Source: a virus
Lineage: Duplodnaviria; Heunggongvirae; Uroviricota; Caudoviricetes
Length of the DNA stretch: 64,000 nt
IMG/VR virus record: IMGVR_UViG_3300043438_000976
Span: 100,027-164,026 of that record
Strand: one strand, 5' to 3'
Shown here: piece by piece, positions 350 through 46,641 of the stretch
Layout of the letters: every line of letters starts with the position of its first letter
Numbering within the stretch: position 1 is the first letter of the stretch
The notes under the pieces: generated by a model
What the model was told of the DNA's origin: nothing
Database searches by the model: none
What the model saw: the letters and a program-made list of their open reading frames with translations, nothing else
Translations under genes and position numbers: made by a program

Positions 350-354
350 AAATA

Positions 355-597: not shown

Positions 598-670
598 CGG
601 TGTGACACGATTCGAACATGCGACCACTGCGTCCCAAACGCAGAGCTCTACCAAGCTGAGCTACACACCG
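598..670 (-). tRNA. tRNA-Pro: tRNA-Pro (UGG)
   Basis: full cloverleaf: CGGTGTG acceptor perfectly paired, D-arm GCTC-AGCTTGGTA-GAGC, loop UUUGGGA, T-loop TTCGAAT. Confidence 0.75.
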
Positions 671-677
671 ATTATCT

Positions 678-753
678 TGGTACGTCCTGACGGGCTCGAA
701 CCGCCGACAGCTGCCGTGTAAAGGCAGAACTCTACCAACTGAGTTAAGGACGC
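678..753 (-). tRNA. tRNA-Val: tRNA-Val (UAC)
   Basis: anticodon stem ctgcc/ggcag perfect, loop UUUACAC; T-loop GCTCGAA rc; acceptor 7/7 with one GU; encoded CCA. Confidence 0.7.
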
Positions 754-761
754 AAAAAACT

Positions 762-835
762 TGGAGCGGGGTGCGAGAATCGAACTCGCGACTTGAACTT
801 GGAAGGATCTCGTTTTACCACTAAACTAACCCCGC
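762..835 (-). tRNA. tRNA-Gly: tRNA-Gly (UCC), weak anticodon stem
   Basis: T-arm GCGAG-TTCGATT-CTCGC perfect; acceptor GCGGGGT paired; loop CUUCCAA; anticodon stem only 3/5 pairs; encoded CCA. Confidence 0.5.
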
Positions 836-1346
836 ATTAAATCTATTTATTGAAACACACTAACACCGCTGGCAAAGTAGTTACACTACTTGATACGATA
901 CCTAATGCATTTCAATAAAGTGTCTAGCCACTCACACCACATGAGCCCCAAACTGAGCGGTTACTCTGTCCACTAATTTTTCCATCTGGACGGGTTTTGT
1001 TCCCGCCCCTAGGCAGTTTTCAGTATCTCCGAACAGAAGACTGTAAGGTCAGGTCCTAGTGTACCCCCTGTTCTATCGTTTCAGGGACGCTGTTTTAATA
1101 ACGTAAAACAGTAAACCGGGTTTTCAACAGGTTAATACTAGTTTAAAGTCCTAGCAGACAGCCATTTTTTATTGCTGTAATTAACCTAAATAGGTTTTTG
1201 AGAGACCAACTATCTTTCTTAAGGACTCGCTGGGTTGTCTCGAATGAGAGAGTTTATGCAGACCTTGTACAATTCTACTGGTGTGTCATGCTCAAGAATA
1301 GGGCACTAGAATACAAGGGACTCATCTCATCGTCTATCTCAAAACT

Positions 1347-1438
1347 TGGTACCCCCGGCGGGAGTCGAACCCACACTAACCAATTATCTGTTGCATACGG
1401 GATATAAATCCGCTGTTCTACCATTAAACTACAGGGGC
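1347..1438 (-). tRNA. class II-like tRNA, anticodon loop UUUAUAU (UAU, AUA-decoding?) with 22-nt extra arm
   Basis: acceptor GCCCCUG/CGGGGGU pairs, D-arm GUUU-AAUGGUA-GAAC, T-loop TTCGACT, A73, encoded CCA; anticodon stem 4/5; identity uncertain. Confidence 0.4.
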
Positions 1439-1445
1439 ATAAAAT

Positions 1446-1515
1446 AACAGGATCAACTTTTTATGTTTCAGTATAAATGAAATTTTTATTATGTTTGCTG
1501 AACTGATCCTAAAAA
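1446..1515 (-). repeat. inter-tRNA hairpin element copy A (AACAGGATC...TTTGCTGAAC.GATCCT + A/T run)
   Basis: inverted repeat aggatca/tgatcct and inner ttcag/ctgaa; conserved motif TTTGCTGAAC shared with copies at 5937 and 6716. Confidence 0.6.
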
Positions 1516-1517
1516 AC

Positions 1518-1607
1518 TTGGCGGTGCGACTGAGACTCGAACTCAGAAACCGGCTTTCACCGATCGACGGATTAGCAATCCGCTCTAATACCATTATAGG
1601 ACCGCAC
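1518..1607 (-). tRNA. tRNA-Ser: tRNA-Ser (GCU), class II
   Basis: T-arm ctgag-actcgaa-ctcag perfect; anticodon loop UUGCUAA; 20-nt variable arm; acceptor 7/7 (one GU); encoded CCA. Confidence 0.6.
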
Positions 1608-1615
1608 CATTTAAC

Positions 1616-1691
1616 TTGGCTCCACAGCGTGGGCTCGAACCACGGACCAAAAGATTAACAGTCTTCTACTCTACCGACTGAGCTACTGCGG
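1616..1691 (-). tRNA. tRNA-Asn: tRNA-Asn (GUU)
   Basis: T-arm cgtgg-gctcgaa-ccacg perfect; loop CUGUUAA; acceptor fully paired; encoded CCA. Confidence 0.65.
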
Positions 1692-1703
1692 AATATTTTT
1701 TAC

Positions 1704-1937
1704 TCAAACGCTAGTACTTGCAGTACCAGTGTCATTGGTCACGTAACTAGTGCCTTGTGGGCGAGGTGCGTTACGATCACGCTTTTCTGATTTTGGAACA
1801 ATGCTTGCTGCCACTTGTGCATCAATCATTGCATTTTTAAAACCATGACGGTCTTGATTATTTTTAAACTTCATCAATGCTAACATTGTTTTTGTTCGCT
1901 TACTCAACTTAAAAGTTGCAGATGTTCTTGCTCTCAT
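1704..1937 (-). CDS. small basic hypothetical protein (about 78 aa) between tRNAs
   Basis: ATG at 1937 preceded by AAGGA SD; K/R-rich product MRARTSATFKLSKRTK...; longer listed ORF 1704..2072 overlaps a tRNA. Confidence 0.3.
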   Translation of the reverse strand: MRARTSATFKLSKRTKTMLALMKFKNNQDRHGFKNAMIDAQVAASIVPKSEKRDRNAPRPQGTSYVTNDTGTASTSV

Positions 1938-1958
1938 TTTGATCCTTAATAAAAAACT

Positions 1959-2033
1959 TGGTCCGGCGTAGAGGAATCGAACCTCTATTCGCACTTTAGA
2001 AGAATGCTGTCCTATCCATTGAACGAACGCCAG
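1959..2033 (-). tRNA. tRNA-Arg: tRNA-Arg (UCU)
   Basis: T-arm agagg-aatcgaa-cctct perfect; loop CUUCUAA; acceptor paired with GU; encoded CCA. Confidence 0.6.
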
Positions 2034-2041
2034 GTAATTGT

Positions 2042-2125
2042 TTGGTACGAGAGGCGGGACTCGAACCCGCATGCCTTTCGACGGGAGATTTTAAGTCTCC
2101 TGAGTATACCATTTCTCCACTCTCG
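2042..2125 (-). tRNA. tRNA-Leu: tRNA-Leu (UAA), class II
   Basis: anticodon stem ggaga/tctcc perfect, loop CUUAAAA; 13-nt variable arm; T-arm gcggg-actcgaa-cccgc; A73; encoded CCA. Confidence 0.7.
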
Positions 2126-2241
2126 CATTCACCATATAGAAACACACTATGTATCTTAGTCGCGTGTAGTTTTGGAGGGCTACACTACAGACCCAAATAG
2201 TTAGACCGCGAATCTAACCCAACCTATAGTATGTTTGTATA

Positions 2242-2325
2242 TGGTGCCCCAGGTCGGACTCGAACCGACACGGATTTCTCCACTGGCTTCTAAGACCAGC
2301 GTGGCTACCATTACACCACCGGGGC
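2242..2325 (-). tRNA. tRNA-Leu: tRNA-Leu (UAG), class II
   Basis: loop CUUAGAA, stem CUGGU/GCCAG; variable arm UGGAGAAAUCCGU hairpin; T-arm gtcgg-actcgaa-ccgac; encoded CCA. Confidence 0.7.
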
Positions 2326-2381
2326 AAATACCAACTTAACTTTTTAAAGAACAGTGCTAACAGTTGCTAGCGTATGTGTTT

Positions 2382-2410
2382 ATTATACAGTCTATTTAAG
2401 ACTCTGTCAA
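2382..2410 (-). promoter_or_regulatory. consensus sigma70-type promoter (TTGACA-17-TATAAT) reading leftwards into the tRNA array
   Basis: minus-strand sequence CTTGACA gagtcttaaatagactg TATAAT; exact -35 and -10 hexamers with 17-bp spacer. Confidence 0.6.
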
Positions 2411-2430
2411 GTCTTTTTTATTTTTTTTTT
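2398..2430 (+). terminator. plus-strand intrinsic-terminator-like hairpin (aagact-ctgtca-agtctt) followed by 15-nt T run
   Basis: 6-bp stem plus T-rich tail ttttatttttttttt; overlaps the -35 of the opposite-strand promoter. Confidence 0.4.
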
Positions 2431-2504
2431 GGTACCCTAGCGTGGGAACGATCCACGGACACCCGCCTTATCAAGACGGTGCTCTACCACTGAGCTACTA
2501 GGGC
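2430..2504 (-). tRNA. tRNA-Ile: tRNA-Ile (GAU), unusual T-loop AUCGUUC
   Basis: D-arm GCTC-AGTGGTA-GAGC, anticodon stem CCGUC/GGCGG, loop UUGAUAA; T-stem cgtgg/ccacg; encoded CCA. Confidence 0.6.
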
Positions 2505-2516
2505 AATAAATACGTA

Positions 2517-3092
2517 ATGCAAAACCATTACAAATTAAATATTCCTGTCAAAATATTAAAAGATAATATAGACATGCAACATTATATTGATTTGGTTTAT
2601 TCTAAATCAGAGCACAATTGGGCTATGAAGTTAGTTGACCATAAAGAATTTCTTACAGATGAGTCTATTGAATTTTTTAAAAATTTCGGAATAGATATTC
2701 TTTCAGAATGTATTTTTTTTAGAGGTAATGCTAACAGCAATCTAGACATTCATATTGATACTATTAACGGAGTTACTCATTGTGTATGGGGTATCAATAT
2801 AGTATGGGGGTCTGCTAATTCAGAAATGTTTTGGTATTCCCCGTTGCCCGGTAAACAAAATAATATTAAAATGTCAAGCGGCGGCACACCATATATTCAT
2901 TTTGATCGAGCCGATGTTGTCTGCATTGAATCTGCTAGAATTGAAGGGCCTTGTTTAGTTAGAACTAATATACCTCATAATGTTGCTAATCGGGACATTG
3001 CAAATATTCGCTGGTGTCTAAGCATTCGGGCAACTGCAAAATTTTCTACTTGGGAAGAAATAGTTGAGCTTTTCAAACCTTTAATTATATAA
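2517..3092 (+). CDS. 2OG-Fe(II) oxygenase superfamily protein, paralogue 1 of 5
   Basis: HxD...H motif (HIDT ... PHNV) and RxS-like tail; paralogous to ORFs at 3522, 4457, 5202, 6108. Confidence 0.45.
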   Translation: MQNHYKLNIPVKILKDNIDMQHYIDLVYSKSEHNWAMKLVDHKEFLTDESIEFFKNFGIDILSECIFFRGNANSNLDIHIDTINGVTHCVWGINIVWGSANSEMFWYSPLPGKQNNIKMSSGGTPYIHFDRADVVCIESARIEGPCLVRTNIPHNVANRDIANIRWCLSIRATAKFSTWEEIVELFKPLII

Positions 3093-3093
3093 T

Positions 3094-3168
3094 TGGTAGT
3101 TCCTACTGGGATCGAACCAGTGACCTTCACAATGTCAATGTGATATTCTACCTCTGAAATAAGGAACT
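3094..3168 (-). tRNA. tRNA-Val: tRNA-Val (GAC)
   Basis: T-arm actgg-gatcgaa-ccagt perfect; anticodon stem UCACA/UGUGA perfect, loop UUGACAU; encoded CCA. Confidence 0.6.
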
Positions 3169-3173
3169 GTAAT

Positions 3174-3250
3174 TGGTACCCCGTGTCTGATTCGAACAGA
3201 CAGCCAACTCCTTTTGAGAGAATCCGCACTACCAATTAGCGTAACGGGGC
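3174..3250 (-). tRNA. class I-length tRNA with anticodon CAA (Leu codon UUG), A73
   Basis: T-arm gtctg-attcgaa-cagac perfect; stem AUUCU/GGAGU, loop CUCAAAA; 73 nt so no long variable arm; atypical D-arm CGC...GCG. Confidence 0.4.
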
Positions 3251-3388
3251 ATAAACAGATTTGTTATATTGTGGATTTTATCAGTTTATTGTTCCACAAC
3301 CTCACGACGCAATGGCAACTATATCGCCGCACTGCTCGATACCCTACCCATTATGCGAACACTTTGGGATCAAACGGGATAACAAAAA

Positions 3389-3465
3389 TGGTACCTTCGG
3401 GCGGATTCGAACCCCCAACCACCTGCTTCTAAGGCAAGCCGCACTCCCAATTAGCGTACGAAGGC
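3389..3465 (-). tRNA. class I-length tRNA with anticodon UAG (Leu codons CUA/CUG), A73
   Basis: loop CUUAGAA, stem CUUGC/GCAGG; D-arm almost identical to the tRNA at 3174-3250; 73 nt; encoded CCA. Confidence 0.4.
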
Positions 3466-3470
3466 ATACA

Positions 3471-3556
3471 TGGTTCCCGAGGAGAGATTCGAACTCTCAC
3501 ATCCTAGTGTTTTTCCTTACCTCAGTAAAGTGTGTCTACCATTCCACCACCCGGGC
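3471..3556 (-). tRNA. class II tRNA (82 nt), possibly Leu (GAG); fold uncertain
   Basis: T-arm gagag-attcgaa-ctctc perfect; candidate loop CUGAGGU; G1:A72 mismatch; encoded CCA; anticodon stem poorly paired. Confidence 0.35.
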
Positions 3557-4091
3557 ATTCAAATATTTTTTTGACTTCTTCGAAAGATAAACTGTTAGTG
3601 TGTAAACAGAATGCTACTCTATCAACTGCGGATGCAGCAATAACAGAATGCGGCTTCGTTACATCCAGTAACCAAACGTCTCCCGGCAATGCTTTAAAAT
3701 TTGCAGCAGGAACTAGATCTTTTAATTTAAAGACACTTCCGTTAGTTTGATTTTTTATCTTTGTTAAAACCGAATCTTCAGTAAGCTGATTATAAAATAC
3801 TGTCACAGCATCAGCAGTCTGTACATAAAAATTTAATACTGCGGTTACTCCGCTATCAGTGTGTGGTCTTGCATACGGTACATTAATTTTCATAATGCCC
3901 GATGTAAAATGTTTTCTATAATTTTCCGGAACGACTTCTAACATAGTATCAGTACAATACTGCGGTATTCTATTATATTGTATACCTTTAAATTCATTGC
4001 CGATTACAGATCCAAAATTTGCAAATTCTTCTTTTGCAATATTTGCATCTAGTGTTAGAAAAAATTGTTCTTTTAATTTAACAAAATACAT
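3522..4091 (-). CDS. 2OG-Fe(II) oxygenase superfamily protein, paralogue 2
   Basis: HTD...H (ARPHTDSG ... KPHSV) motif; 3' end overlaps the 5' end of the tRNA at 3471-3556. Confidence 0.45.
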   Translation of the reverse strand: MYFVKLKEQFFLTLDANIAKEEFANFGSVIGNEFKGIQYNRIPQYCTDTMLEVVPENYRKHFTSGIMKINVPYARPHTDSGVTAVLNFYVQTADAVTVFYNQLTEDSVLTKIKNQTNGSVFKLKDLVPAANFKALPGDVWLLDVTKPHSVIAASAVDRVAFCLHTNSLSFEEVKKIFECPGGGMVDTLY

Positions 4092-4111
4092 AACAATATT
4101 TACAACTAACT

Positions 4112-4185
4112 TGGTGCGGGGTAGGAGAATCGAACTCCTGCTTAAACGTTGGCAACGTCTGGTTCTACCATTAAACTAACCACGC
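4112..4185 (-). tRNA. tRNA-Gly: tRNA-Gly (GCC)
   Basis: T-arm aggag-aatcgaa-ctcct perfect; stem AGACG/CGUUU, loop UUGCCAA; one acceptor mismatch; encoded CCA. Confidence 0.6.
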
Positions 4186-4190
4186 ATAAA

Positions 4191-4268
4191 TGGAGTAGGG
4201 AGTGGGATTTGAACCCACGAATCAACTGGTTTGCAATCAGTGCCATTAAGCCTCTCTGGAACCCCTAC
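4191..4268 (-). tRNA. tRNA-Cys: tRNA-Cys (GCA)
   Basis: T-arm gtggg-atttgaa-cccac perfect; loop UUGCAAA; acceptor 7/7 with GU; U73; encoded CCA. Confidence 0.55.
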
Positions 4269-4271
4269 ATA

Positions 4272-4337
4272 ATAAAACAGGATACAGTTTCGATGGGCAT
4301 GAAGCCCATTGCTCTACCATTGAGCGAATCATCCAAA
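4272..4337 (-). pseudogene. T-armless tRNA-like remnant (D-arm GCTCAATGGTAGAGC plus anticodon-type hairpin with UCA triplet), merged with a repeat-element variant
   Basis: acceptor-like ggataca/atcatcc 5 bp; only 8 nt where a T-arm should be; begins with AAAACAGGATA like the inter-tRNA repeat. Confidence 0.25.
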
Positions 4338-4339
4338 GC

Positions 4340-4391
4340 GGATAATGTTGGAATCGAACCAACGTGTCGTTAGACATTGCTGTATGTATCC
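4340..4391 (-). pseudogene. truncated tRNA-like fragment (acceptor plus T-arm gttgg-aatcgaa-ccaac, then mini-hairpin)
   Basis: perfect T-arm but only 28 nt remain before the acceptor partner tatcc; too short for anticodon and D arms. Confidence 0.2.
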
Positions 4392-4397
4392 TTAAAC

Positions 4398-4471
4398 TGG
4401 CACTCCCCTAGGGACTCGAACCCCAACGAACGGTTTTGGAGACCGCTATGCTGCCATTACATCAGAGAAGT
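4398..4471 (-). tRNA. tRNA-Trp: tRNA-Trp (CCA)
   Basis: stem GCGGU/ACCGU, loop CUCCAAA; acceptor ACUUCUC/GGGGAGU fully paired with GU; encoded CCA. Confidence 0.65.
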
Positions 4472-4969
4472 ATATGTATGCTGTACTAACCAAGATTTTA
4501 GATCTGTGTAGGAAAAAATTCCCGGTAGTACATATGAAAGTAGATATCTATCTTTTTCGTCTAGATTTATTACAGTATGCACCTGTTTTGAATTAAATGC
4601 ATACCATGTATTAGGATCGTACTCAAGTTCAATTACTTTTTGTAAGAAAGGAGTTCCGTGATTCCCAACTGAAAACAATGTATGACAATGATATCGATCT
4701 AATGCCATATTTAATGAACACCCTATTGAATTTTTATCCTGGTGCCATCCATAGACAGATTTACATGGAATTTTATAAAGATTTAACTCTCCTAAAAATT
4801 CCTTATGAATTTTACTCAGTAATTGATCATCACCGATGTGCGTACTAGATAAATTTGTAGCAATAAACATAGACGGAACCCATTTCCAAATTGCATTCGG
4901 AATAAATTCTTTTACTTTAGGTAAAAAATTAATGTCAGTGTTAACAGGGATAAAATAATCTTCGTTCAT
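4457..4969 (-). CDS. 2OG-Fe(II) oxygenase superfamily protein, paralogue 3
   Basis: HQD...H (GWHQDKN ... QVHTV); start moved to MNEDYF at 4969 because upstream listed residues translate the tRNA-Ser gene. Confidence 0.45.
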   Translation of the reverse strand: MNEDYFIPVNTDINFLPKVKEFIPNAIWKWVPSMFIATNLSSTHIGDDQLLSKIHKEFLGELNLYKIPCKSVYGWHQDKNSIGCSLNMALDRYHCHTLFSVGNHGTPFLQKVIELEYDPNTWYAFNSKQVHTVINLDEKDRYLLSYVLPGIFSYTDLKSWLVQHTYTSLM

Positions 4970-4974
4970 ATTAT

Positions 4975-5066
4975 TGGTGGAAAGCAGAGGAGTCGAACCC
5001 CATCCCATTTCTGAGAACCCAGTTTTCAAGGCTGGTCGGGGAACCAACTCCCCTGCATTACTTTCC
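4975..5066 (-). tRNA. tRNA-Ser: tRNA-Ser (UGA), class II
   Basis: loop CUUGAAA; variable-arm hairpin UCUCA-GAAA-UGGGA; T-loop TTCGACT; acceptor GGAAAGU/GCUUUCC paired; encoded CCA. Confidence 0.55.
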
Positions 5067-5106
5067 GTATTTATTGGTGCCACAATGTGGCAAAAACTTA
5101 TTAGGG

Positions 5107-5176
5107 GTGACTAACGGGACTCGAACCCGTACTACCAGAGTCACAGTCTAGGTTGCTACCATTACAACATAGCCAC
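5107..5176 (-). tRNA. tRNA-His: tRNA-His (GUG), C73 discriminator
   Basis: T-arm acggg-actcgaa-cccgt perfect; loop CUGUGAC; acceptor 7/7; discriminator C typical of His; no encoded CCA. Confidence 0.6.
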
Positions 5177-5201
5177 ACCTAATAAGTCTTTCGGTAAATA
5201 A

Positions 5202-5819
5202 ATGATGACAACGTATCATCATAACTTAAATTTTAATGTTGACTTGTTAAAAAACAAACATAGTTTAACAAGTCTTCCTAACATAGTTAATGGCAAAAAA
5301 TCCTATCATTCTTCAATTAGTATCAAGGAACATATTAACTCGGACATGCTAGACTTGCTAGCAGATTTAGATATTTTTCCAGATCATTGCGAAGTGTTCT
5401 ACTCTACTCCTAATTTTTTTAGCGGTATACATGTTGATGTTAAACATGGAGACTTTACTAAAATAAATTGGATATTTGGAGGTGCTAACAGCATTATGAA
5501 TTGGTACAAACCAAAAGATAATATTGTTCGCACTGAGCAAAGTTTATCTGCGGTTAACTCACATTACATAGGATATAATCGAACTGAAGTTGATTTGTTG
5601 TTTTCAGCCCCTATAGGATTTCCTTCAGTTGTGCAAGTCGGAGTACCTCATAATATCATTAATCCTATCGAAGATAGATATTGTATCAGTCTAGTATTAT
5701 CATCTTTAAAAGATGGATGTGTATATAGACCCTCTATGCAACGATCTATCAATATGCTAACCAAGTACTTGGCACCCACGGAAGGATTCGAACCTCCGAC
5801 TCCTACGTTCGTAGCGTAG
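5202..5819 (+). CDS. 2OG-Fe(II) oxygenase superfamily protein, paralogue 4
   Basis: HVD...H (GIHVDVKHG ... VPHNI); shares GGANS.M.WY and VPHN blocks with paralogue 1; 3' end overlaps tRNA-Arg. Confidence 0.45.
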   Translation: MMTTYHHNLNFNVDLLKNKHSLTSLPNIVNGKKSYHSSISIKEHINSDMLDLLADLDIFPDHCEVFYSTPNFFSGIHVDVKHGDFTKINWIFGGANSIMNWYKPKDNIVRTEQSLSAVNSHYIGYNRTEVDLLFSAPIGFPSVVQVGVPHNIINPIEDRYCISLVLSSLKDGCVYRPSMQRSINMLTKYLAPTEGFEPPTPTFVA

Positions 5820-5846
5820 TACTCTAGTCCACTGAGTTACGCGGGT
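5770..5846 (-). tRNA. tRNA-Arg: tRNA-Arg (ACG)
   Basis: stem ctacg/cgtag perfect, loop CUACGAA; T-loop TTCGAAT; acceptor paired; encoded CCA. Confidence 0.7.
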
Positions 5847-5855
5847 ATGAATTGT

Positions 5856-5929
5856 TGGCAGGCCTACCAGGGCTCGAACCTGGAACGACAGAGTCAAAGT
5901 CTGTTGTGTTACCATTACACCATAGACCA
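5856..5929 (-). tRNA. tRNA-Gln: tRNA-Gln (UUG)
   Basis: T-arm ccagg-gctcgaa-cctgg perfect; stem acaga/tctgt perfect, loop CUUUGAC; U1:U72 mismatch; encoded CCA. Confidence 0.6.
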
Positions 5930-5936
5930 ACAAAAT

Positions 5937-6009
5937 AAAACAGGATGCTTTTTTACGTTTTCAATTAAAAGTTGAATGTATAAAGTTTGCTGAACGCATC
6001 CTAAAATTG
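5937..6009 (-). repeat. inter-tRNA hairpin element copy B
   Basis: AAAACAGGATGC...TTTGCTGAACGCATCCTAAAA; same conserved ends as copies A and C, variable loop. Confidence 0.6.
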
Positions 6010-6010
6010 G

Positions 6011-6086
6011 CACCGCCGACGAGAATCGAACTCGCCTTGATCTCCTAGACAGGGAGGTGTAATACCCAGATTACTACGACGGTATA
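6011..6086 (-). tRNA. tRNA-Asp: tRNA-Asp (GUC)
   Basis: D-arm GUAA-UCUGGGUA-UUAC perfect; loop CUGUCUA; acceptor ACCGUCG/CGGCGGU paired; encoded CCA. Confidence 0.6.
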
Positions 6087-6089
6087 ATA

Positions 6090-6097
6090 CTTGCTAT
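6090..6097 (+). promoter_or_regulatory. T4 late-promoter-like box TATAAATA 10 nt upstream of the 6108 ORF
   Basis: exact TATAAATA octamer; spacing to ATG is short, so function uncertain. Confidence 0.25.
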
Positions 6098-6107
6098 AAA
6101 TATCGGA

Positions 6108-6647
6108 ATGGATCCGGCACTTTATAGATCAATCAAGTTTGAAAACATTGACACCATTAGAAATAAAATGGTTGATGTTGTTCTCAAACATACAAAACTT
6201 AATGAGCCTTTATTTCAATATGTTAAAGCTTCGGAGTTTACTGATATTCCAGAACTCAAAGAACAACTTCAAACATACGGACTATATCAATATCTTCATT
6301 ATGCAGTTATTAACGTAAGTCTTAAAGGAACATATCCTATTCACAAAGATACAGGAGGGTTTGTTTATAGTCTAAACATTCCTATCCTTGGATTTGATAA
6401 TACTTTTCTAAATTTTTATTCTTCAACTACAGAGCCGAGAATACAAGGTACAGGGCAAGGCAATGTTACCTACATGCTATACAACCACAGTGACTGTGAG
6501 TTTGTTGGAAAAGTGGAAACAAATGAGCCTGCAATTGTTAATACACAAGTTCCACATGCTTTTCAAAATTGTAATATCCTTCCGCGGGTTGTAATCTTGT
6601 TTAGGATTAATCAGCGTTGGGATATTAATGAATGGCTCCGTGTGTGA
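6108..6647 (+). CDS. 2OG-Fe(II) oxygenase superfamily protein, paralogue 5
   Basis: HKD...H (PIHKDTGG ... VPHAF). Confidence 0.4.
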   Translation: MDPALYRSIKFENIDTIRNKMVDVVLKHTKLNEPLFQYVKASEFTDIPELKEQLQTYGLYQYLHYAVINVSLKGTYPIHKDTGGFVYSLNIPILGFDNTFLNFYSSTTEPRIQGTGQGNVTYMLYNHSDCEFVGKVETNEPAIVNTQVPHAFQNCNILPRVVILFRINQRWDINEWLRV

Positions 6648-13950: not shown

Positions 13951-14888
13951 AAAAAGTTTTAATTACAGGCGGCACAGGATTTATAGGCCACAATTTAGTT
14001 AAAGAGTTTTTAAAAGATCACAAGGTGGTGTGTCTTGTTCGTCCGGGATCTAAAAATTTAGATCGTTTGTTAGACGTATACAGTATGGTTGAATTTGTTA
14101 ACCATAACATTAGAGAACCATTACCAAATATACACGACATTGATATTATACTACACGCAGGTGCTAATCCTAGTGCAGCCGACAGTATCAACGACCCGGT
14201 GGGTGCTGTAACAGATAATGTTATTGGTACTGTAAACTTATTAGAGTTTGCTCGAAAATCAAAAGTAGAAAAGTTTGTTTACTACAGTTCCGGCGAAGTG
14301 TTTGGTCCTATTCCAATCGGGCAAGATAGTTATGAAAACGATGCATACAATTCTAACAGTCCTTACGCCGCAAGTAAAGCAGCAGGCGAAGAATTATGTG
14401 TTTCTTATAGTAAATCATTTGGGCTTCCGGTAAGTATTATTCATATCAATAACACATTCGGTCCAATGTGCCAGTCTAATAGATTTCCAGTTATTGCTAT
14501 GTCTAAAATTTTAAAGGGAGAACCTTTATCTATTCATGTAGGTCCTAGCAAAGCAATAGGCGGACGTAGATGGTTTCATGCAGAAGATGTTGCATTACAT
14601 ACTAGATTCATTTTAGATAATCAAAAAGACATTTGTGAAAAATGGAATAGTGCAGGTAGGAAGTTTGTTAATAACGCAGACCTTGCTCAGATTATTGCCA
14701 AGCTAATGAACAAAGAAATTAGTTTAGAATATGTGCCAGTCGATCGGCCTGGACACGATTTATGCTTTTCAGTAGATCCCTGGAAGTTATATGATAGAGG
14801 TTGGGTAGAACCTTCGAGTTTAGAGGATAGACTAAAACAAACAATTGATTGGTACTTGGCCAATCCAGAATGGTTATCAAGGAATTAA
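13947..14888 (+). CDS. NAD-dependent epimerase/dehydratase (extended SDR)
   Basis: N-terminal ITGGTGFIGHNL Rossmann motif and YAASKAAGE (YxxxK) catalytic motif. Confidence 0.65.
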   Translation: MKKVLITGGTGFIGHNLVKEFLKDHKVVCLVRPGSKNLDRLLDVYSMVEFVNHNIREPLPNIHDIDIILHAGANPSAADSINDPVGAVTDNVIGTVNLLEFARKSKVEKFVYYSSGEVFGPIPIGQDSYENDAYNSNSPYAASKAAGEELCVSYSKSFGLPVSIIHINNTFGPMCQSNRFPVIAMSKILKGEPLSIHVGPSKAIGGRRWFHAEDVALHTRFILDNQKDICEKWNSAGRKFVNNADLAQIIAKLMNKEISLEYVPVDRPGHDLCFSVDPWKLYDRGWVEPSSLEDRLKQTIDWYLANPEWLSRN

Positions 14889-14889
14889 A

Positions 14890-15828
14890 ATGATTAAAAC
14901 AGTATATGTAACAGGGTGTTTAGGTTTTATAGGTTATCATGTAACACTGGCCTGTTTAGAACGAGGATGGCACGTTCGTGGCATTGACAAAGGCACCTAT
15001 GCAGCCAATTGGAATTTGCTAGACGACTTAAAAAAATATAAAAGATTTATATTTGAAAACAAAGATATAAATGAAATAGACAAATTGTATGAGTGTGATT
15101 ATTTCATTAATACCGCTGCCGAGACTCATGTAGATAACAGTATTACCAGTAGCAAAGTATTTTTAGAAAGTAACATTAACGGAGTTCATCATATTTTAGA
15201 AAAAATAAAGGCTGCTAGAAAACAGCCTATATTCTTACATTTTTCTACAGATGAAGTTTATGGAGATATTGAAAAAGGATTCCATACAGAAGAAGATCTA
15301 TTAAAGCCTAGCAACCCGTATTCTGCTACAAAGGCATCGGCTGACATGTTAATTACAGCTTGGGCACGTACCTACGGTATATCTTATGTAATTGTTCGTC
15401 CTACTAACAATTACGGTATTGGACAATATACTGAGAAGTTTATTCCTCACACTATAAAATATTTGAGTTTAGGTAAAAAGGCAACATTGCACGATAACGG
15501 CACACCAAGACGTACATGGTTACATGCCAGTGATACAGCAGCCGCAGTTATTAAAATTATAGAAGTAGGCGTTGTAAACGAAGTATATAACATTAGTGGA
15601 AACTACGAAGAACAAAATATTGTAGTTGCCAGGAAGATTATTAAAGCAATGGGCCTAAAGGGAGATCCAGATCAGTATCTAGACACTACAGAAAAACGCC
15701 CAGGTCAAGATGTACGATATGCAATTGACGATGCTAAATTACAACACCTTGGCTGGAAACCAGTTGCTAAGTTTGATTCAGAGTTGAAAAGTATCGTTAA
15801 GTATTATACTAAAAACTTTATTTGGTAA
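14890..15828 (+). CDS. NDP-hexose 4,6-dehydratase-like extended SDR
   Basis: VTGCLGFIGYHV, TDEVYG and YSATKASAD motifs; start set at MIKTVYVTG (AGGAA SD) rather than the upstream overlapping ATG. Confidence 0.6.
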   Translation: MIKTVYVTGCLGFIGYHVTLACLERGWHVRGIDKGTYAANWNLLDDLKKYKRFIFENKDINEIDKLYECDYFINTAAETHVDNSITSSKVFLESNINGVHHILEKIKAARKQPIFLHFSTDEVYGDIEKGFHTEEDLLKPSNPYSATKASADMLITAWARTYGISYVIVRPTNNYGIGQYTEKFIPHTIKYLSLGKKATLHDNGTPRRTWLHASDTAAAVIKIIEVGVVNEVYNISGNYEEQNIVVARKIIKAMGLKGDPDQYLDTTEKRPGQDVRYAIDDAKLQHLGWKPVAKFDSELKSIVKYYTKNFIW

Positions 15829-16327
15829 AGCCGTTATTGTAGTTAACATTATCAAACTCTATTAAACTTGCACGAGGATTCTTAATCCAAAAGTCAACAG
15901 CATTTATAATCTGTTGATACGGAATTGAATCATACTGTGTCCAGTTTTCAAGGAATCCCATTTTCAGCAACAACATTGGAAATTGAGATTCCTTTTTTAA
16001 TTTCTTATGTTCAATTTCAATAAGTTTTTTTGCAGTAGCATAACGAATAATGTCTGGATTAGGGTAGTCAGCAGCCATAGATCCGCAAGTTATAATAGAA
16101 GTCTTATTATATAAACGTTTTAAAAATTCATATTGTATAGTGTGAAGGTGTAAATTGTTAATGAACAGATCAGCAGTCTCTGCTAAGTTGACAACTTCTT
16201 CAAACTTTTCAGGCAGTGTATAACCATTTGATCTAGACACACCCACAACCTCGTGACCTGATTGTGTTAAGTAATTGAAAAAGGCGAGCCCGAGCCCGCC
16301 TGTGTGTCCTGTGATTACAACTCGCAT
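15818..16327 (-). CDS. short NAD(P)-binding Rossmann-fold protein (reductase-like)
   Basis: MRVVITGHTGGLGLAF N-terminal dinucleotide-binding motif; 169 aa. Confidence 0.35.
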   Translation of the reverse strand: MRVVITGHTGGLGLAFFNYLTQSGHEVVGVSRSNGYTLPEKFEEVVNLAETADLFINNLHLHTIQYEFLKRLYNKTSIITCGSMAADYPNPDIIRYATAKKLIEIEHKKLKKESQFPMLLLKMGFLENWTQYDSIPYQQIINAVDFWIKNPRASLIEFDNVNYNNGFTK

Positions 16328-16833
16328 CAGCTATTTAAAACTTTTGCTACTGAGTTCATAACAGAAGCGATTCGGCCAATGTCACGAAGTTGTTCCACTG
16401 TATAGCCTTCAGTCTTTAATGTTTCGTAATGTGCTTTTACACAGAAGTGGCATTTTCCAACAATACTGGCTGCAAGACTAAACGCTTCAAAGTTTGATTT
16501 GGTAGTTCCGCCGTGTGACGCAATGGCGTTCATGCGTAACTGTGCTGGCAGGCCTTTTAGGGCAGGATCATCTGCCATCTCAACATATGGATACCATACA
16601 TTGTTCTGTGCCATGATACTGGCCGCAGTCATTGCTGACTCTGCATGTACTGGGGCATCTGCTAACAGGATGCTAAGTACTTTACCGTTGCCAGTTGCAG
16701 CCAATGCAGCCACAGCACACCCTAAGGCTACATCTGCATCCAGTGTGCTACGCAGTAGAACAGCATCAAGATTTAACTTGGTGTCCTTTGCATAGTCTGG
16801 CAACGCACCTTTTACTGATTCAATAAAACTCAT
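16327..16833 (-). CDS. AhpD-like / carboxymuconolactone decarboxylase family protein
   Basis: CHFCVKAH (CxxC..H) AhpD core motif; adjacent to peroxiredoxin. Confidence 0.5.
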   Translation of the reverse strand: MSFIESVKGALPDYAKDTKLNLDAVLLRSTLDADVALGCAVAALAATGNGKVLSILLADAPVHAESAMTAASIMAQNNVWYPYVEMADDPALKGLPAQLRMNAIASHGGTTKSNFEAFSLAASIVGKCHFCVKAHYETLKTEGYTVEQLRDIGRIASVMNSVAKVLNS

Positions 16834-17225
16834 TTTGTCATCTCCGCTAATTGTTTATATCCATTATATGTAGGATGTACCTTATCTTTCGATAACTCTG
16901 GGATTGTCAAAATAGTATCACCAAAACTGTTAGCAATGATTCTAACAATATCCTGCACCGCTGGTTTAATAGGCGGCATTACCCACATGACTTTTTTTGC
17001 ATAGATTTGTTGCCTCAGTAACAACAATTCTTTAAAAGAGTTTATAGTATCAGGATCATTAGTTCCGAGACTGATAATCACAGTATTGGCAGATAAATCT
17101 TTGACAATATTTCTATTGTTCCAGTTGTAGCTGTTAATACCGCTCTTAACATAAGCAACACATTCTTTACGAACTGTGCTAATGCCTTGAGCAATACTAT
17201 CGCCTAAGATAAGGCATTCTAACAT
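16830..17225 (-). CDS. SGNH/GDSL hydrolase
   Basis: block I LGDSIAQG, block III SLGTND, block V DKVHPT. Confidence 0.55.
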   Translation of the reverse strand: MLECLILGDSIAQGISTVRKECVAYVKSGINSYNWNNRNIVKDLSANTVIISLGTNDPDTINSFKELLLLRQQIYAKKVMWVMPPIKPAVQDIVRIIANSFGDTILTIPELSKDKVHPTYNGYKQLAEMTK

Positions 17226-17764
17226 TATAGAGTCTCGCCACCAACTGTACGGTTACAAGCACATAGCTCGCCTGTTTGTAACGCATCAAGAACACGAAGT
17301 GTTTCTTCTGGGTTGCGACCAACGTTCAAGTTGTTCACAGTTACGTGTTGGATCTCGTTGTTGGGGTCAACAATGAATGTTGCACGAAGTGCGGCACCTG
17401 CAGGTGCATAGAATACGCCCAACTGCTCAATCAAACTCAACTCACCACGCTGTGTGTCTGCGAATTGATTATGACGAATGTTCTTTAGATCAGCGTGAGC
17501 ATTTTGCCAGCTGACTTTACAGAACTCATTGTCTGTTGACCCTGTGAGCAATACTGCGTCACGGTCATCAAAATCTGCGGCTAGTTTGTCGTAGGCTACA
17601 ATTTCTGTAGGACAAACAAATGTAAAGTCTTTTGGATAGTAAACGATTACTTTCCACTTGCCTGGAAATGACTTCTCTGTAATTTCGAAGAATGCATCTT
17701 CTGGTTGTCCAAACTTTACGCCTGTTACTGCGAATGGGGCTAATTTGTCACCGACTGTTTTCAT
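17225..17764 (-). CDS. ahpC: peroxiredoxin (AhpC/Prx1 family)
   Basis: FTFVCPTEI peroxidatic Cys motif; AGGAG SD before ATG 17764. Confidence 0.85.
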   Translation of the reverse strand: MKTVGDKLAPFAVTGVKFGQPEDAFFEITEKSFPGKWKVIVYYPKDFTFVCPTEIVAYDKLAADFDDRDAVLLTGSTDNEFCKVSWQNAHADLKNIRHNQFADTQRGELSLIEQLGVFYAPAGAALRATFIVDPNNEIQHVTVNNLNVGRNPEETLRVLDALQTGELCACNRTVGGETL

Positions 17765-17797
17765 AATATCTCCTGTGTGTTAAATGAAAAAATTTCT

Positions 17798-17830
17798 GTA
17801 CATCTTATGTACTGTACAGTTATTGTACAT
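17798..17830. promoter_or_regulatory. operator-like cluster of four TGTACA palindromes upstream of ahpC, in a divergent intergenic region
   Basis: TGTACAtcttaTGTACTGTACAgttatTGTACA plus flanking ATTGTA...TACAAT inverted repeat. Confidence 0.4.
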
Positions 17831-17972
17831 ATATTTACAATAGAAATCAACTAAAATCTCATGGTTTTCCATTGATTGTTCCTATAACGCTAATAGGTTA
17901 TTAAGTACCAGGTTTTAAAAATTATATACCTAGTAAATACGATTACACCACAACTTAGGACTAGGAGCAAAA

Positions 17973-18254
17973 ATGGGCGATATTTTTAAAATTATCGGCG
18001 ACCTCGGTATGCCAGTTGCGGCAGCACTTGCAGGCGGGTACTTTGTGTACTTAACTATCAAGCTGTTGTTGCAGGGCGTTCTTGGGTCAATAAAAGGAAT
18101 GGCTGGTATTATCACAGCACTGGACAATCGTGTAAAAACTATGAATCACGATGTTATACGTATCGATACAATTGTATCCAATGCTCTAGGTCTGCGTCCT
18201 GATGCAGATCGTATTGCTCGTGCAGACGGCAAAAACGATGCAAGGAGAGATTAA
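17973..18254 (+). CDS. hypothetical small membrane protein
   Basis: hydrophobic N-terminal segment; GGAGCAAAA SD-like before ATG. Confidence 0.3.
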   Translation: MGDIFKIIGDLGMPVAAALAGGYFVYLTIKLLLQGVLGSIKGMAGIITALDNRVKTMNHDVIRIDTIVSNALGLRPDADRIARADGKNDARRD

Positions 18255-18445
18255 TGTTGCACATTGATTATCGTTGGGATCTACATCCAGACAAGATTGT
18301 TTTAGATGAAGAACTTAATACAGATAGATTAGGATGGCGAGCAGGCGACATGTTTAAGTTTATCAATGTCGACGGTAAGCAAATGCTAGTCAAAATAGAT
18401 CCTCTTGAAAAATTCATAAGGAGTAAACAGTATGAGCAAGTATGA
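18254..18445 (+). CDS. hypothetical protein (63 aa)
   Basis: ATGA overlap with upstream gene; no recognisable motif. Confidence 0.25.
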   Translation: MLHIDYRWDLHPDKIVLDEELNTDRLGWRAGDMFKFINVDGKQMLVKIDPLEKFIRSKQYEQV

Positions 18446-18520
18446 AGCATGGTGGGACAGTTTACCCCAATCAACCAAAATTTATTTAAAAAGCCAACCA
18501 ATTTGGCACGATAGCGACAT

Positions 18521-18913
18521 GTGGAGAGCCGGCATGTTCGGATTAGTAGTAGGATTCATTCTAGGAGTAATATTATAATGGATGTCGTTGAATTAGTTAA
18601 CAAGTACGGATTCCCTATTGTTATGGCAGTAGGCATGGGATTCATTATCAAGTATGTGTGGGAATGGGCTACTAAGGAAGTGAAACCAGTTATTAGCGAT
18701 GCTAACACAGTTTTGATTGCACTAATTGATCGTATACGTATGTTGGATAATGACCTTATCAGACTTAACCAAAAAGTTAATACAGTGTTACATCTACGTG
18801 GTAAGACAATTGAGTTTGAACGTGTAGAAGCAGAGAAAGCAATTAATAAAATAGACCGCTCTAAAAGCGAGGGTAACGAAGATACTAAGTCAGCTACATC
18901 AGGTGAAAGTTGA
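18521..18913 (+). CDS. hypothetical membrane / coiled-coil protein
   Basis: TM segment FPIVMAVGMGFII followed by charged helical region. Confidence 0.3.
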   Translation: MESRHVRISSRIHSRSNIIMDVVELVNKYGFPIVMAVGMGFIIKYVWEWATKEVKPVISDANTVLIALIDRIRMLDNDLIRLNQKVNTVLHLRGKTIEFERVEAEKAINKIDRSKSEGNEDTKSATSGES

Positions 18914-18949
18914 TTTGAGAAAGTTTTGCTAGATTGTGAAGCCATACGA

Positions 18950-18985
18950 CACCCTCTACGGAGGGTGATCTTATGATGTTTGCTG
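18950..18985 (+). terminator. hairpin (caccctc-tacg-gagggtg) with U-rich tail after the 18521 gene
   Basis: 7-bp GC-rich stem, 4-nt loop, followed by atcttatgatgtttg. Confidence 0.4.
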
Positions 18986-19325
18986 AGTTGCTCTGCACAC
19001 ACTTGACAGTAGGTATTTGATCTTCACTCTTCTGGGCTCTGTACCTTACCCAACCTACTACGACTTTTAAAGAAACTGCGGTGTCACTGTTCCTATGAGA
19101 GTATAGAAAATCTTTTCAACTATTATGACAATCCAAACGTTTCGTGCCAGTGGGCAGACGTTTAAGCATCCTCTCGGGTAGTGGATTGAAATCGCCCTCG
19201 CAATGAGGCTAGGTCATTGGGTCACACGTCAGAACCTTGACCAACAGAAAATTACCGGTGCTGTTTCACCTTAAGTTGCGAATAATGGGAGTGTGAATGT
19301 AAGTGTGTAACTTACATTATACAGG

Positions 19326-19370
19326 CTATCCAAAATGATTGCGACCGAAATGGCGATCTATTTTGGATAG
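19326..19370 (-). terminator. long hairpin (11-bp stem ctatccaaaat/attttggatag) just downstream of the cyclase gene
   Basis: perfect inverted repeat directly after stop codon at 19385 on the minus strand; no clean U-run. Confidence 0.35.
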
Positions 19371-19384
19371 TAGGCCTGCAGATA

Positions 19385-21439
19385 TTACTTGCTTGTGGCT
19401 ATGAATACGCCATTCCAGTCGGCTGGAAGTATTTGAGTCTTTTGAAACTCACAGCGTTCTATCCACATGCTGTAGTATTTTTTCATTTGCCCGTCGAACT
19501 CATCTTTCAGTTCTTCACACAGTGTAATGGCATCGTCCCATTTCTGCTGTCTATAACATGAGTGCATTTCATTATGAGTTTCTTGTGCTAACAAATATTC
19601 TGCGGCAACAGTTACGTCAGGGTCAAGTACTGTATAGATAGCAACTCCTACACTCTTACCTTTAACTGCTAGGTCGTCAATCTTAAGGAAGAAGAACTCG
19701 TCAGCACATCGTTGAACGGTTGCTCCACCTACTAATAACAGGCAACCGTATTCTTTACACTTGCTTTCGATACGTGCGGCTGTGCTAACGGCATCGCCTA
19801 GTACATCGTAACTGTGTCGAGCTGTACTGCCCATCTCACCGATGTAGCCCAATCCTGTATTAATGCCTGCACCCATACCAACTGGTGGTCTGCCTTGCGG
19901 AACAATCACGTCTCGGTTAAAAGTATCTACAGCTCTAAGCATCTTTAATCCTGTGCGAACTGCTGTTGACGGGTGATTAAGATCTTCAATGGGTGCATTG
20001 TGTATGTGCATACTGGCATCACCGATGTACTTGATAATCATTCCGTCTGCATCTAATACAGGTTGCGTAATAGCGTCCATGTAGCCGTTCATTATACGTG
20101 TAAGCCCCGCAACATCATCACCAAAGCTTTCACCTAGGGGTGTAAAGCCACGTAAGTCTGAAAACAGTATGCTGACTTCTTTCTTAACACCCTTCTTAAT
20201 AAGGTCTGGATTTTCTTGCAGTAATCTAACCACTGTAGGACTAGCGTAACCTGCAAACTGTTTCTTGATTGCCTGCTTCTGTAAAAACTCGCTTACGAAT
20301 TTAACTCCGTATGCATGTAATGCCACAAGCAATATGCCACTGACAAAAGCAGTAGCATCAAACAGATAAAGATACTGGCTATAAGCATACATGCTGACAG
20401 CAACACCACCCATAGAAAGAGCAACCACTGTTCCAAGTCCAACATATACCCACCTTGTTAAAAATAATAATAGTACGCCTGCTGCTAACAGTACAATAAT
20501 TTCCACACCATCTGCGTAATCCGGACGCTGGATAGTTACATTGTTCATCATTGTGCCTATTACTGCGGCCTGTACTTCGTGTGGAAATACTGCACCCTTA
20601 CTAGTGGGTAATGGATTAGCAATACCTGCGGCTGTTGGGCCTACGATAACAATAGCACCTGCTAGATCTTTTGGCAGGTTTACTGCACTAACGCTGTGAC
20701 TTGCCTGACTCCAATCAATCCATATGCGACCTAAGTTATCTGTTGCTACAGGACCAAACTTAGGTATACGCATCTTCTCAACTCCACCTTCAAATAGCTT
20801 GACTTGGAATGTTGAATCGCCTGCCGCTACGCGGAGTGTTTCCATAGCTAGACTAGGATATAACTTACCGTCAACTGTGACAATTAACGGCAATCTGCGA
20901 TTAACACCATCTACTTCTGGCAGTGTGTTTACGATACCAACACCTGCTGCTGCGTTCTCTAACACAGGTACGTTGGCAATCAAACCCGGATACTGTATAA
21001 TTTGATCCAAGTACTCAGGACCTAATACTGCCGAACCGGGATTGCGTGGTTCGTTCTTTGTTTTCTGTGCAGGAATGCTGCCTAATACAACTGGGTATTC
21101 TTTTAGAGCTTTACCCAGTTGACTGTCACCACCTGTACGATCTGTTTCTGGCATGAGTACGTTAAGTACCACAAGGCCCGCTCCCCTCTGATATAAATCT
21201 CGTATAAGTCGGGAATACTCAACACGAGGTAACGGCCATTGTCCATATTTGTCTAAGCTCCCTTCATCAATGTTTACTGTAACAATGTTGTTAACAGTAG
21301 TTTCTTTAGATGTAATCAGCGTATCAAAATAGCGTAGTCTTATACTTTCTACAAAGACAGGATCAGCAATTCTTATACTTAAAATAAGTGCCAATGTCAG
21401 CAATGCTGTCCATGGACTTGTTAGGATTTTTTTCAACAT
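19385..21439 (-). CDS. CHASE2-sensor class III adenylate/guanylate cyclase
   Basis: N-terminal signal/TM, periplasmic CHASE2-like region, TM cluster, then cyclase block SILFSDLRGFTPLGE...GDAS; 684 aa. Confidence 0.7.
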   Translation of the reverse strand: MLKKILTSPWTALLTLALILSIRIADPVFVESIRLRYFDTLITSKETTVNNIVTVNIDEGSLDKYGQWPLPRVEYSRLIRDLYQRGAGLVVLNVLMPETDRTGGDSQLGKALKEYPVVLGSIPAQKTKNEPRNPGSAVLGPEYLDQIIQYPGLIANVPVLENAAAGVGIVNTLPEVDGVNRRLPLIVTVDGKLYPSLAMETLRVAAGDSTFQVKLFEGGVEKMRIPKFGPVATDNLGRIWIDWSQASHSVSAVNLPKDLAGAIVIVGPTAAGIANPLPTSKGAVFPHEVQAAVIGTMMNNVTIQRPDYADGVEIIVLLAAGVLLLFLTRWVYVGLGTVVALSMGGVAVSMYAYSQYLYLFDATAFVSGILLVALHAYGVKFVSEFLQKQAIKKQFAGYASPTVVRLLQENPDLIKKGVKKEVSILFSDLRGFTPLGESFGDDVAGLTRIMNGYMDAITQPVLDADGMIIKYIGDASMHIHNAPIEDLNHPSTAVRTGLKMLRAVDTFNRDVIVPQGRPPVGMGAGINTGLGYIGEMGSTARHSYDVLGDAVSTAARIESKCKEYGCLLLVGGATVQRCADEFFFLKIDDLAVKGKSVGVAIYTVLDPDVTVAAEYLLAQETHNEMHSCYRQQKWDDAITLCEELKDEFDGQMKKYYSMWIERCEFQKTQILPADWNGVFIATSK

Positions 21440-46539: not shown

Positions 46540-46641
46540 TCAAAAATCCTTTGAATAATGTACGCAACGAGTCTATCTCTTTGCTGTATGTATTTATTAT
46601 ACAGGTTTTCTTTCCTGTTGTAAAGTGATTATTTTACCAAT

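Follow-up and report, generated by a model that had tools for sequence, protein, structure and literature searches.

A probable PeSL-type promoter and stem-loop cassette ahead of the ahpC operon of a large freshwater phage

Promoter-early stem-loop (PeSL) cassettes have been described in T4-type phages (Arbiol et al. 2010, PMC2839356; Comeau et al. 2014, PMC4122927), where they are most frequent in hyperplastic regions and bring about the shuffling of modules (PMC2839356; PMC4122927). A stem-loop just after the -10 is among the PeSL positions described (PMC2839356), and a PeSL stem-loop placed between promoter and lacZ lowered expression to the same degree as the rrnB T1 terminator does (PMC2839356). 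Here we compare with these cassettes the region upstream of ahpC, a peroxiredoxin gene that opens a minus-strand operon in a 64,000-nucleotide stretch of phage DNA (positions 100,027 to 164,026 of IMG/VR record IMGVR_UViG_3300043438_000976; hereafter the window). The region carries a cluster of TGTACA hexamers, which a first-pass annotation of the sequence took for the binding array of a dimeric, possibly redox-responsive regulator. From its sequence and that of related loci we consider this 'TGTACA operator' likely to be this phage lineage's version of an ordinary early-promoter-plus-hairpin cassette of the PeSL type.

The TGTACA cluster, the ahpC promoter and its stem-loop

Exact TGTACA hexamers are found at 17797, 17813 and 17824 and a fourth unit, TGTACT, at 17808-17813, all within 33 bp. 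The first-pass annotation had counted four TGTACA here; the cluster stands, and the count becomes three exact copies plus one TGTACT. Across the whole window there is no overall enrichment of the hexamer (23 found, 24.9 expected), and three copies within 33 bp were reached in 0 of 200 Markov simulations, the Poisson expectation being about 0.001. TGTACA does not occur at this density everywhere, which the annotation had named as what would refute its reading, and by simulation the cluster survives. It is real, local and non-random, and is the only such cluster in the window. Within it a 16-nt direct repeat, CTGTACAnnTTATTGTA, occurs twice and forms two similar units. The inverted repeat ATTGTA (17822-17827)...TACAAT (17836-17841) that had been noted beside the cluster is also present.

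On the minus strand a sigma70-like promoter is predicted in the same place, of the form TTGATT-N17-TACAAT. The -35 element TTGATT (17845-17850) is kept in relatives, and the -10 hexamer TACAAT (17822-17827) belongs to a -10 region, TGTACAAT (17822-17829), that includes the third TGTACA copy (17824-17829). A sigma70-like TTGAYT-N17-TAYAAT is present in about 45 of the 58 distinct upstream regions of related ahpC loci, 45-90 nt before the ATG and mostly at 53-57. The TGTACAAT form of the -10 is seen in about 15 relatives too, and in identical form at the window promoter 9275-9247. The minus strand of the window has at least 14 sigma70-like promoters of the ahpC type, before minus-strand genes, and eight of these have TGTAYAAT. 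Given that TGTACAAT is a common -10 form in this phage, the TGTACA at 17824 is accounted for as part of the predicted -10 region. The ATTGTA...TACAAT repeat (17822-17841, without strand), which corresponds to TGTA-N8-TACA at 17824-17839, spans the promoter spacer and the -10. Its ATTGTA left arm differs in relatives without compensation (AGCGTA, AGAGTA, CATGTA or ATATTA), and a TAAATA spacer motif is common to the ahpC promoter and other promoters of the window. By this comparison the repeat is promoter spacer plus predicted -10.

Between the promoter and ahpC the leader TTTTTTCATTTAACACACAGGAGATATT (17765-17792, minus strand) carries a Shine-Dalgarno sequence, AGGAG (17770-17774), 5 nt before the ATG, and is kept across relatives as TTTTCA..CACACA(A)AGGAGA. 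Upstream of the -35, two small inverted repeats with A-rich centres, ATGG-N4-CCAT and CCTAT-N7-ATAGG (17861-17897, without strand), are found in nearly all relatives (L003-L079), their arm sequences varying while the symmetry is kept. An OxyR box retained from a bacterial donor was considered for the region upstream of the -35 (CTAT-N7-ATAG-N7-CAAT tetrads at 11-bp spacing) and rejected: the tetrads vary in relatives, with only the symmetry kept, the four-tetrad consensus is matched with five mismatches, and a faint resemblance to the Alcaligenaceae ahpC upstream sequence TTAGGAATTATCAAT is not claimed as evidence. In three loci (L016, L030 and L038) a tRNA gene directly upstream of ahpC replaces the promoter cassette.

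Directly after the -10 lies a palindromic stem-loop (17796-17819, minus strand) that takes in the first two TGTACA copies as well as the TGTACT unit. Its outer stem pairs CTGTACA (17819-17813) with TGTACAG (17802-17796), with an RNA fold of -7.8 kcal/mol; if the transcript starts near 17815, an inner stem, GTACAT (17812-17807)-AAG-ATGTAC (17803-17798), of -4.5 kcal/mol is expected. The TGTACA at 17813 and 17797 and the TGTACT thus read as the arms of a predicted hairpin. The palindrome at this position differs by lineage, and at least seven unrelated stem sequences are seen, among them TCAGT-N6-ACTGA, AGAAC-N5-GTTCT, GCAGAA-N3-TTCTGC, ACAAC-N5-GTTGT and ATGTCA-N4-TGACAT. The CTGTACA-N9/10-TGTACAG form is confined to the window and a few close contigs. 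In an alignment-free test of the 34 nt that follow the -10, perfect stems of 5 bp or more were present in 36 of 40 distinct relatives but in only 17.8% of random 34-mers drawn from the same phages (binomial p = 5e-23; mean stem 5.6 versus 3.7 bp). In a covariance-model alignment of the palindrome region, which was fitted to the structure, 67% of cells pair, against 56% in shuffles, and there are 34 double changes against 19, values that 0 of 500 shuffles reached and that slid controls fell below. What is kept after the -10 is hence most likely symmetry or pairing, and not the TGTACA hexamer, as judged from these sequence comparisons. A search of Rfam with 17600-18100, at E values up to 1, found nothing. 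The stem-loop may serve as an mRNA-stabilising 5'-terminal hairpin, as an attenuator of read-in transcription or as a recombination point for cassette shuffling.

The layout of promoter plus stem-loop is not confined to ahpC but recurs at about ten other sites in the window. Unrelated hairpins follow the -10 of the promoters at 61727, 9185, 2410 and 38252, and lie in the spacer of those at 46624 and 39661. At 42872-42844, 41685-41657 and 37246-37218 (all minus strand) the hairpins are G/C-rich, with the -35 in the loop, and are followed by T-runs, as in AAGGGCC-TTGACG-GCCCTTTTC; these three promoters are predicted to be combined terminator-promoter elements like the published PeSLs. The ahpC cassette is itself a mosaic. 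Its -35 and upstream half (17902-17820) is about 89% identical to L076, in the comparison with L076 and L080, and the half with the -10, hairpin and leader (17838-17774) is 86-90% identical to L020 and L044, a pattern that implies a crossover near the -10. The flanks of ahpC are highly variable, with 42 upstream contexts among 79 loci.

Taken as a cassette, the AT-rich upstream region, sigma70-like promoter, stem-loop and Shine-Dalgarno sequence with ATG would together make up a unit of the PeSL type. Host sigma70 RNA polymerase would start at the predicted promoter TTGATT (17850-17845)-N17-TACAAT (17827-17822), with a predicted start site near 17815, and a single transcript would cover ahpC and the three genes behind it, coding for a mini-SGNH protein, AhpD and a mini-SDR protein. 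By analogy with the proteins of Mycobacterium tuberculosis, AhpC (peroxidatic Cys C51; C168/C170) would reduce H2O2 and organic hydroperoxides and AhpD (C128/C131) would re-reduce AhpC, AhpD itself presumably being reduced by host lipoyl proteins with Lpd and NADH. Apparent expression of the operon from a host-type early promoter would suggest that the infected cell is protected from peroxide from the start of infection.

A number of observations weigh against a PeSL-type cassette with an RNA stem-loop. The covariance-model alignment, being fitted to the structure, is biased towards it. RNAalifold on a plain MAFFT alignment gave no consensus pairs, because the hairpin registers differ among the sequences. 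Folding energy does not favour the sense RNA (-5.47 sense versus -5.77 antisense, p = 0.13), and G.U-type extensions number 28 on the antisense and 13 on the sense strand, many of them shared by descent. Taken alone, the hairpin of the window is unexceptional (z = -1.4). Paired changes like those of an RNA stem are equally expected of a symmetric DNA site to which a dimeric protein binds. Moreover, the window contains no core T4 genes, and the term 'T4-type' rests here on rIIA/rIIB and on relatives (the nearest relatives of the CHASE2 cyclase are in the T4-like phages Melnitz and HTVC008M).

Alternative explanations of the TGTACA cluster

The operator proposed by the first-pass annotation would consist of two TGTACA-N5-TGTAC(A) sites lying over the start site, at which a dimeric, possibly redox-sensing regulator represses ahpC until a signal arrives. 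The local non-randomness of the cluster and its two similar units of CTGTACAnnTTATTGTA are consistent with this, as is the position of about -6 to +20, which is typical of repressor operators, and six contigs of the sub-lineage differ in their loop bases but share the TGTAC cores. However, the array is limited to a small sub-lineage (the window, L020/L161, L083 and L162/L173) though AhpC and the promoter are conserved, and in all other relatives the promoter is the same but the palindrome that follows it at this place is another one. One of the boxes is the -10 region itself. Even close to the window the array gives way: in L044 two boxes are lost, with TGTATAAT and TGTACG in their place, and in L162/L173 a base inserted after the -10, ahead of the first arm, shifts the phase by 1 bp. 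We found no second array in the window. The related loci, 850 kb in all, contain just one further three-TGTACA cluster, CTGTACATATATAATTGTACAATGTACAAGG, a single repeated site in L022 (about 1453) and L027 (about 726) at more than 4 kb upstream of ahpC. When 2.9 million viral contigs were scanned with the array pattern, 20 matches came up, four of them from this phage group and all four upstream of ahpC. Bacterial ahpC upstream regions examined have no TGTACA, and in the window and the related loci no array was seen before another gene, the gene context of the L022/L027 cluster not having been examined. The comparison with OxyR, PerR and LexA boxes that the annotation had suggested was run and gave no fit: in the 208-bp region the consensus sequences of OxyR, PerR/Fur, OhrR, four LexA types, CRP and FNR matched no better than in random windows (best matches with 1-8 mismatches, equalled in 4-82% of random 208-bp windows), and no match meaningfully overlaps the TGTACA boxes. 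Given the lack of conservation, the overlap with the -10 and the other palindromes of the relatives, a binding array for such a regulator is not borne out; we regard it as very unlikely and see no case for chasing a 'TGTACA regulon'. It is just as improbable that the palindrome after the -10 was recruited in this sub-lineage as a true operator, adding signal-dependent control over a generic cassette, and we give an equally low probability to the broader variant in which the lineage-specific palindromes, instead of being RNA or DNA hairpins, bind rapidly co-evolving regulators.

Three further explanations were considered. In the view of the PeSL authors the palindrome would be an attenuator or terminator of minus-strand read-in, or a point of premature stop at the hairpin and the AAAUUUUUU that follows it. 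A run of six U (17792-17787) comes after the stem-loop, many relatives have a T-rich TTTTCA soon after the stem, and the cloned PeSL stem-loop reduced lacZ like the rrnB T1 terminator (PMC2839356). Against this, the terminator scan does not call the site, whose stem has two G-C pairs, a loop of 10 nt and three A before the T-run; stems of -4 to -9 kcal/mol are weak, in relatives the T-run begins anywhere from 1 to 9 nt past the stem, and the upstream neighbours in the window are divergent, so little read-in is expected. An intrinsic terminator at the palindrome was rejected, since the site departs from the G+C-rich stem, short loop and immediate T-run expected of one, and attenuation in general we hold to be unlikely. 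A part of the array might instead be a divergent plus-strand promoter, TGTACA (17813-17818)-N17-TACAAT (17836-17841), for the small membrane-protein genes that begin at 17973, which would be compatible with a PeSL-type cassette on the other strand; the repetition of the hexamer would in that case stem from an overlap of two back-to-back promoters. This site is listed in the promoter scan with 9 of 12 matches, and the plus-strand genes at 17973-18913 need a promoter inside the 208-bp intergenic region. Yet the scan gives 12 promoter-like sites against 10.9 in shuffles, the ATTGTA arm is not conserved in relatives, and up93 homologues are not adjacent to ahpC in relatives that have the identical cassette, so that a divergent promoter here is quite unlikely. 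The least probable explanation, which we consider extremely unlikely, is that TGTA-N8-TACA at 17824-17839 is a site of the NtcA or CRP family, perhaps tied to the neighbouring CHASE2 cyclase. The site has zero mismatches, a result equalled in 1% of random 208-bp windows, and the cyclase gene is 1.6 kb away, but 13 consensus sequences were tried, so one match at 1% is unremarkable. At NtcA-activated promoters the activator site is at -41.5, and here the match covers the spacer and the -10. In most relatives its GTA is changed to TTA or ATA, and the closest cellular AhpC comes from Burkholderiales, not cyanobacteria. The NtcA-type match was accordingly rejected as a by-product of promoter spacer plus -10 that is not conserved in relatives.

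The ahpC operon, its products and its phage

The operon comprises four open reading frames (ORFs) on the minus strand: ahpC (17225-17764, 179 amino acids), the gene of a mini-SGNH hydrolase or acyl-esterase (16830-17225, 131 amino acids), ahpD (16327-16833, 168 amino acids) and a mini-SDR gene (15818-16327, 169 amino acids) whose start overlaps the ahpD stop codon. At the three junctions stop and start codons overlap (TAATG, ATGA and TGATG), and the four genes therefore make up a single translationally coupled operon. The first-pass annotation had recognised an AhpC with the motif FTFVCPTEI, an AhpD-type CxxC protein and a GDSL/SGNH hydrolase in one minus-strand operon. All three products are confirmed, in AhpC with C51 as the peroxidatic Cys, in AhpD with C128-H-F-C131-xxx-H and in the 131-residue ORF with its SGNH-like sequence, and so is the single operon; the order AhpC-AhpD-SGNH is to be replaced by AhpC-SGNH-AhpD, with mini-SDR as a fourth member.

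Phage AhpC scores 71.3 bits against Pfam AhpC-TSA (PF00578; cut-off 26). Its closest solved structure is M. tuberculosis AhpC (2bmx, E 1e-44), and the alignment runs through the ELCA(C/S)N motif. C51 in FTFVCPTE is the peroxidatic Cys, and the C-terminal ELC168AC170N aligns with ELCA(S)N of 2bmx, a C176S mutant, the pair in M. tuberculosis being C174/C176. The equivalog TIGR03137 of the E. coli-type, AhpF-dependent AhpC is not reached (108.5 bits, cut-off 272), and ahpC is linked in the same operon to ahpD rather than to ahpF. By these sequence features the protein is classed as a mycobacterial-type, AhpD-dependent peroxiredoxin.

AhpD exceeds the cut-offs of Pfam CMD (37.9 bits, cut-off 23) and of the AhpD core domain TIGR00778 (29.6, cut-off 27.8). 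Its active-site motif, C128-H-F-C131-V-K-A-H135, combines CxxC with a downstream His, and residues 4-166 align to residues 3-168 of M. tuberculosis AhpD (1gu9/1knc) with E 6e-25. The AhpD subfamily model TIGR00777 counts against the assignment, the score of 120.8 being under its cut-off of 191.95.

The 131-residue protein scores 21.9 against Pfam PF13472, below the gathering score of 32.9, and all its Pfam GDSL matches are likewise below cut-off. It has 1341 homologues of about 131 residues from metagenomes, many of which carry PF13472. Block I (G8-D9-S10), block III (G54-x-N56-D57) and block V (D114-x-x-H117) are invariant in 42 homologues. An AlphaFold (AF2) model has a pLDDT of 97.1, and a Foldseek search with it returned SGNH proteins for almost all of the top nine matches (E 3e-5 to 6e-4, TMq 0.68-0.72), the SGNH matches including the OatA C-terminal domain and GDSL acylhydrolases. 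'SGNH hydrolase' is therefore a fair name for what the model and the motifs present as a putative enzyme.

The mini-SDR protein has TGHTGGLG (TGxxxGxG) at residue 6 and YATAK (YxxxK) at residue 96, and its N-terminal part is matched by Pfam adh_short and Epimerase; a counterpart is found in one related locus only (L033, 33% identity). At 16282-16301 on the minus strand, 26 nt past the ahpD stop codon and within the 5' end of the mini-SDR ORF, there is a strong terminator-like hairpin, AGGCGGGCTCGGGCTCGCCT, with TTTTC after it. The hairpin sequence encodes the glycine-rich motif of the mini-SDR protein, and it may act as an attenuator of the mini-SDR gene. The end of this ORF overlaps a convergent sugar dehydratase gene by 11 nt.

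The window also encodes adjacent rIIA and rIIB and NAMPT (PHROG matches), an NMNAT/NUDIX protein and 34 tRNAs, and the ahpC operon probably serves a large freshwater phage as an auxiliary unit of peroxide detoxification. No match to 15000-20000 came up in a megablast search of 50,697 phage records, and hence no cultured phage among them is close in DNA. In IMG/VR, more than 599 viral contigs encode an AhpC at 88-96% identity, some on contigs of over 300 kb. Nearly all of 80 related loci have an ahpD beside or close to ahpC. In about half of these loci ahpD is the very next gene after ahpC; in the others, genes intervene. An SGNH gene (42-56% identity) is a frequent, loosely placed neighbour of ahpC in these loci. 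Compared with the window, AhpC is at 88-96% identity throughout L001-L080, whereas AhpD sorts into two classes, one at about 89-97% and the other at about 67-74%.

The nearest cellular AhpC proteins, from Burkholderiales, share 66-71% identity. A few matches with cellular labels reach 77-91% and belong to short contigs of metagenome-assembled genomes (MAGs) with phage-type upstream sequence. Phage-type ahpC at 77-91% is carried by the genome contigs L081-L084 (2.5-23 kb; MAG labels Alphaproteobacteria, Haliscomenobacter, Rhizobium and Fischerella), of which L082 and L083 also have the promoter-hairpin cassette. These four are probably mis-binned phage fragments, and so are not evidence of a host. 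Searches of the literature for phage AhpC/AhpD found no direct description. As an auxiliary gene set of large freshwater phages, the mycobacterial-type AhpC/AhpD pair is very widespread and its conservation is strong, consistent with reports of lake viruses that carry peroxide-defence genes such as katG.

Around the operon, a nucleotide-sugar gene cluster (9447-15828, plus strand), with an aminotransferase, two NAD-dependent epimerase/dehydratases and others, is convergent with it. Divergent from ahpC are the genes of two paralogous small PHROG 18771 proteins with hydrophobic N-termini (17973-18254 and 18521-18913, plus strand), which directly adjoin the ahpC cassette only in the window. At 1.6 kb from ahpC lies the gene of an adenylate/guanylate cyclase of 684 amino acids with a CHASE2 sensor (19385-21439, minus strand), 51% identical to the cyclase of Methylophilales phage Melnitz and 36% to the one of Pelagibacter phage HTVC008M. 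Given these counterparts in two phages, it is predicted to be a phage-encoded nucleotide-signalling protein. A 34-tRNA array (275-8351, minus strand), one member of which has an odd anticodon call, is preceded by three tandem near-consensus sigma70-like promoters (9359-9331, 9275-9247 and 9185-9157, minus strand).

Comparison with known systems

Bacterial ahpC promoters under OxyR, PerR or OhrR control have the same class of gene downstream, and the phage region bears the faint tetrad resemblance to Alcaligenaceae (TTAGGAATTATCAAT) mentioned above. They differ in that the TGTACA region does not fit the consensus sequences of these regulators and that the bacterial homologues lack TGTACA.

With the M. 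tuberculosis AhpC/AhpD system the phage proteins share the Cys of FVCPTE, the C-terminal ELCACN and the CxxCxxxH of AhpD, and in both systems a single operon joins ahpC to ahpD. In contrast to that system, the genes here are phage-encoded and a mini-SGNH gene is inserted between the pair. The nearest cellular AhpC is from Burkholderiales rather than from actinobacteria, and lipoamide with Lpd would be the reductant here by analogy.

Stem-loops at the 5' terminus shield mRNAs of bacteria and phages against decay that depends on RNase E, as in the ompA 5' untranslated region. The ahpC leader resembles these in having a short hairpin a few nucleotides from the predicted 5' end, of which the sequence varies and the pairing is kept. 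It differs in that the start site is a predicted one and that the strand comparisons do not favour a sense RNA.

The closest likeness is to the PeSLs. The phage group is a freshwater one, with Melnitz and HTVC008M as nearest cultured relatives, and the stems at the ahpC locus are A/T-rich, unlike the Gn-loop-Cn of PeSLs, the likeness being drawn here from sequence only. As in PeSLs, an AT-rich upstream region and a near-consensus sigma70-like promoter are combined with a short stem-loop of variable placement, a Shine-Dalgarno sequence and an ATG. Shared also are the many copies in accessory regions, the lineage-specific stem sequence, the variable accessory genes and the mosaic junctions. Such cassettes may explain the movement of ahpC between very different gene neighbourhoods. 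Described in T4 relatives among the coliphages and vibriophages, PeSL-like cassettes seem to underlie the organisation of accessory regions in this freshwater group too.

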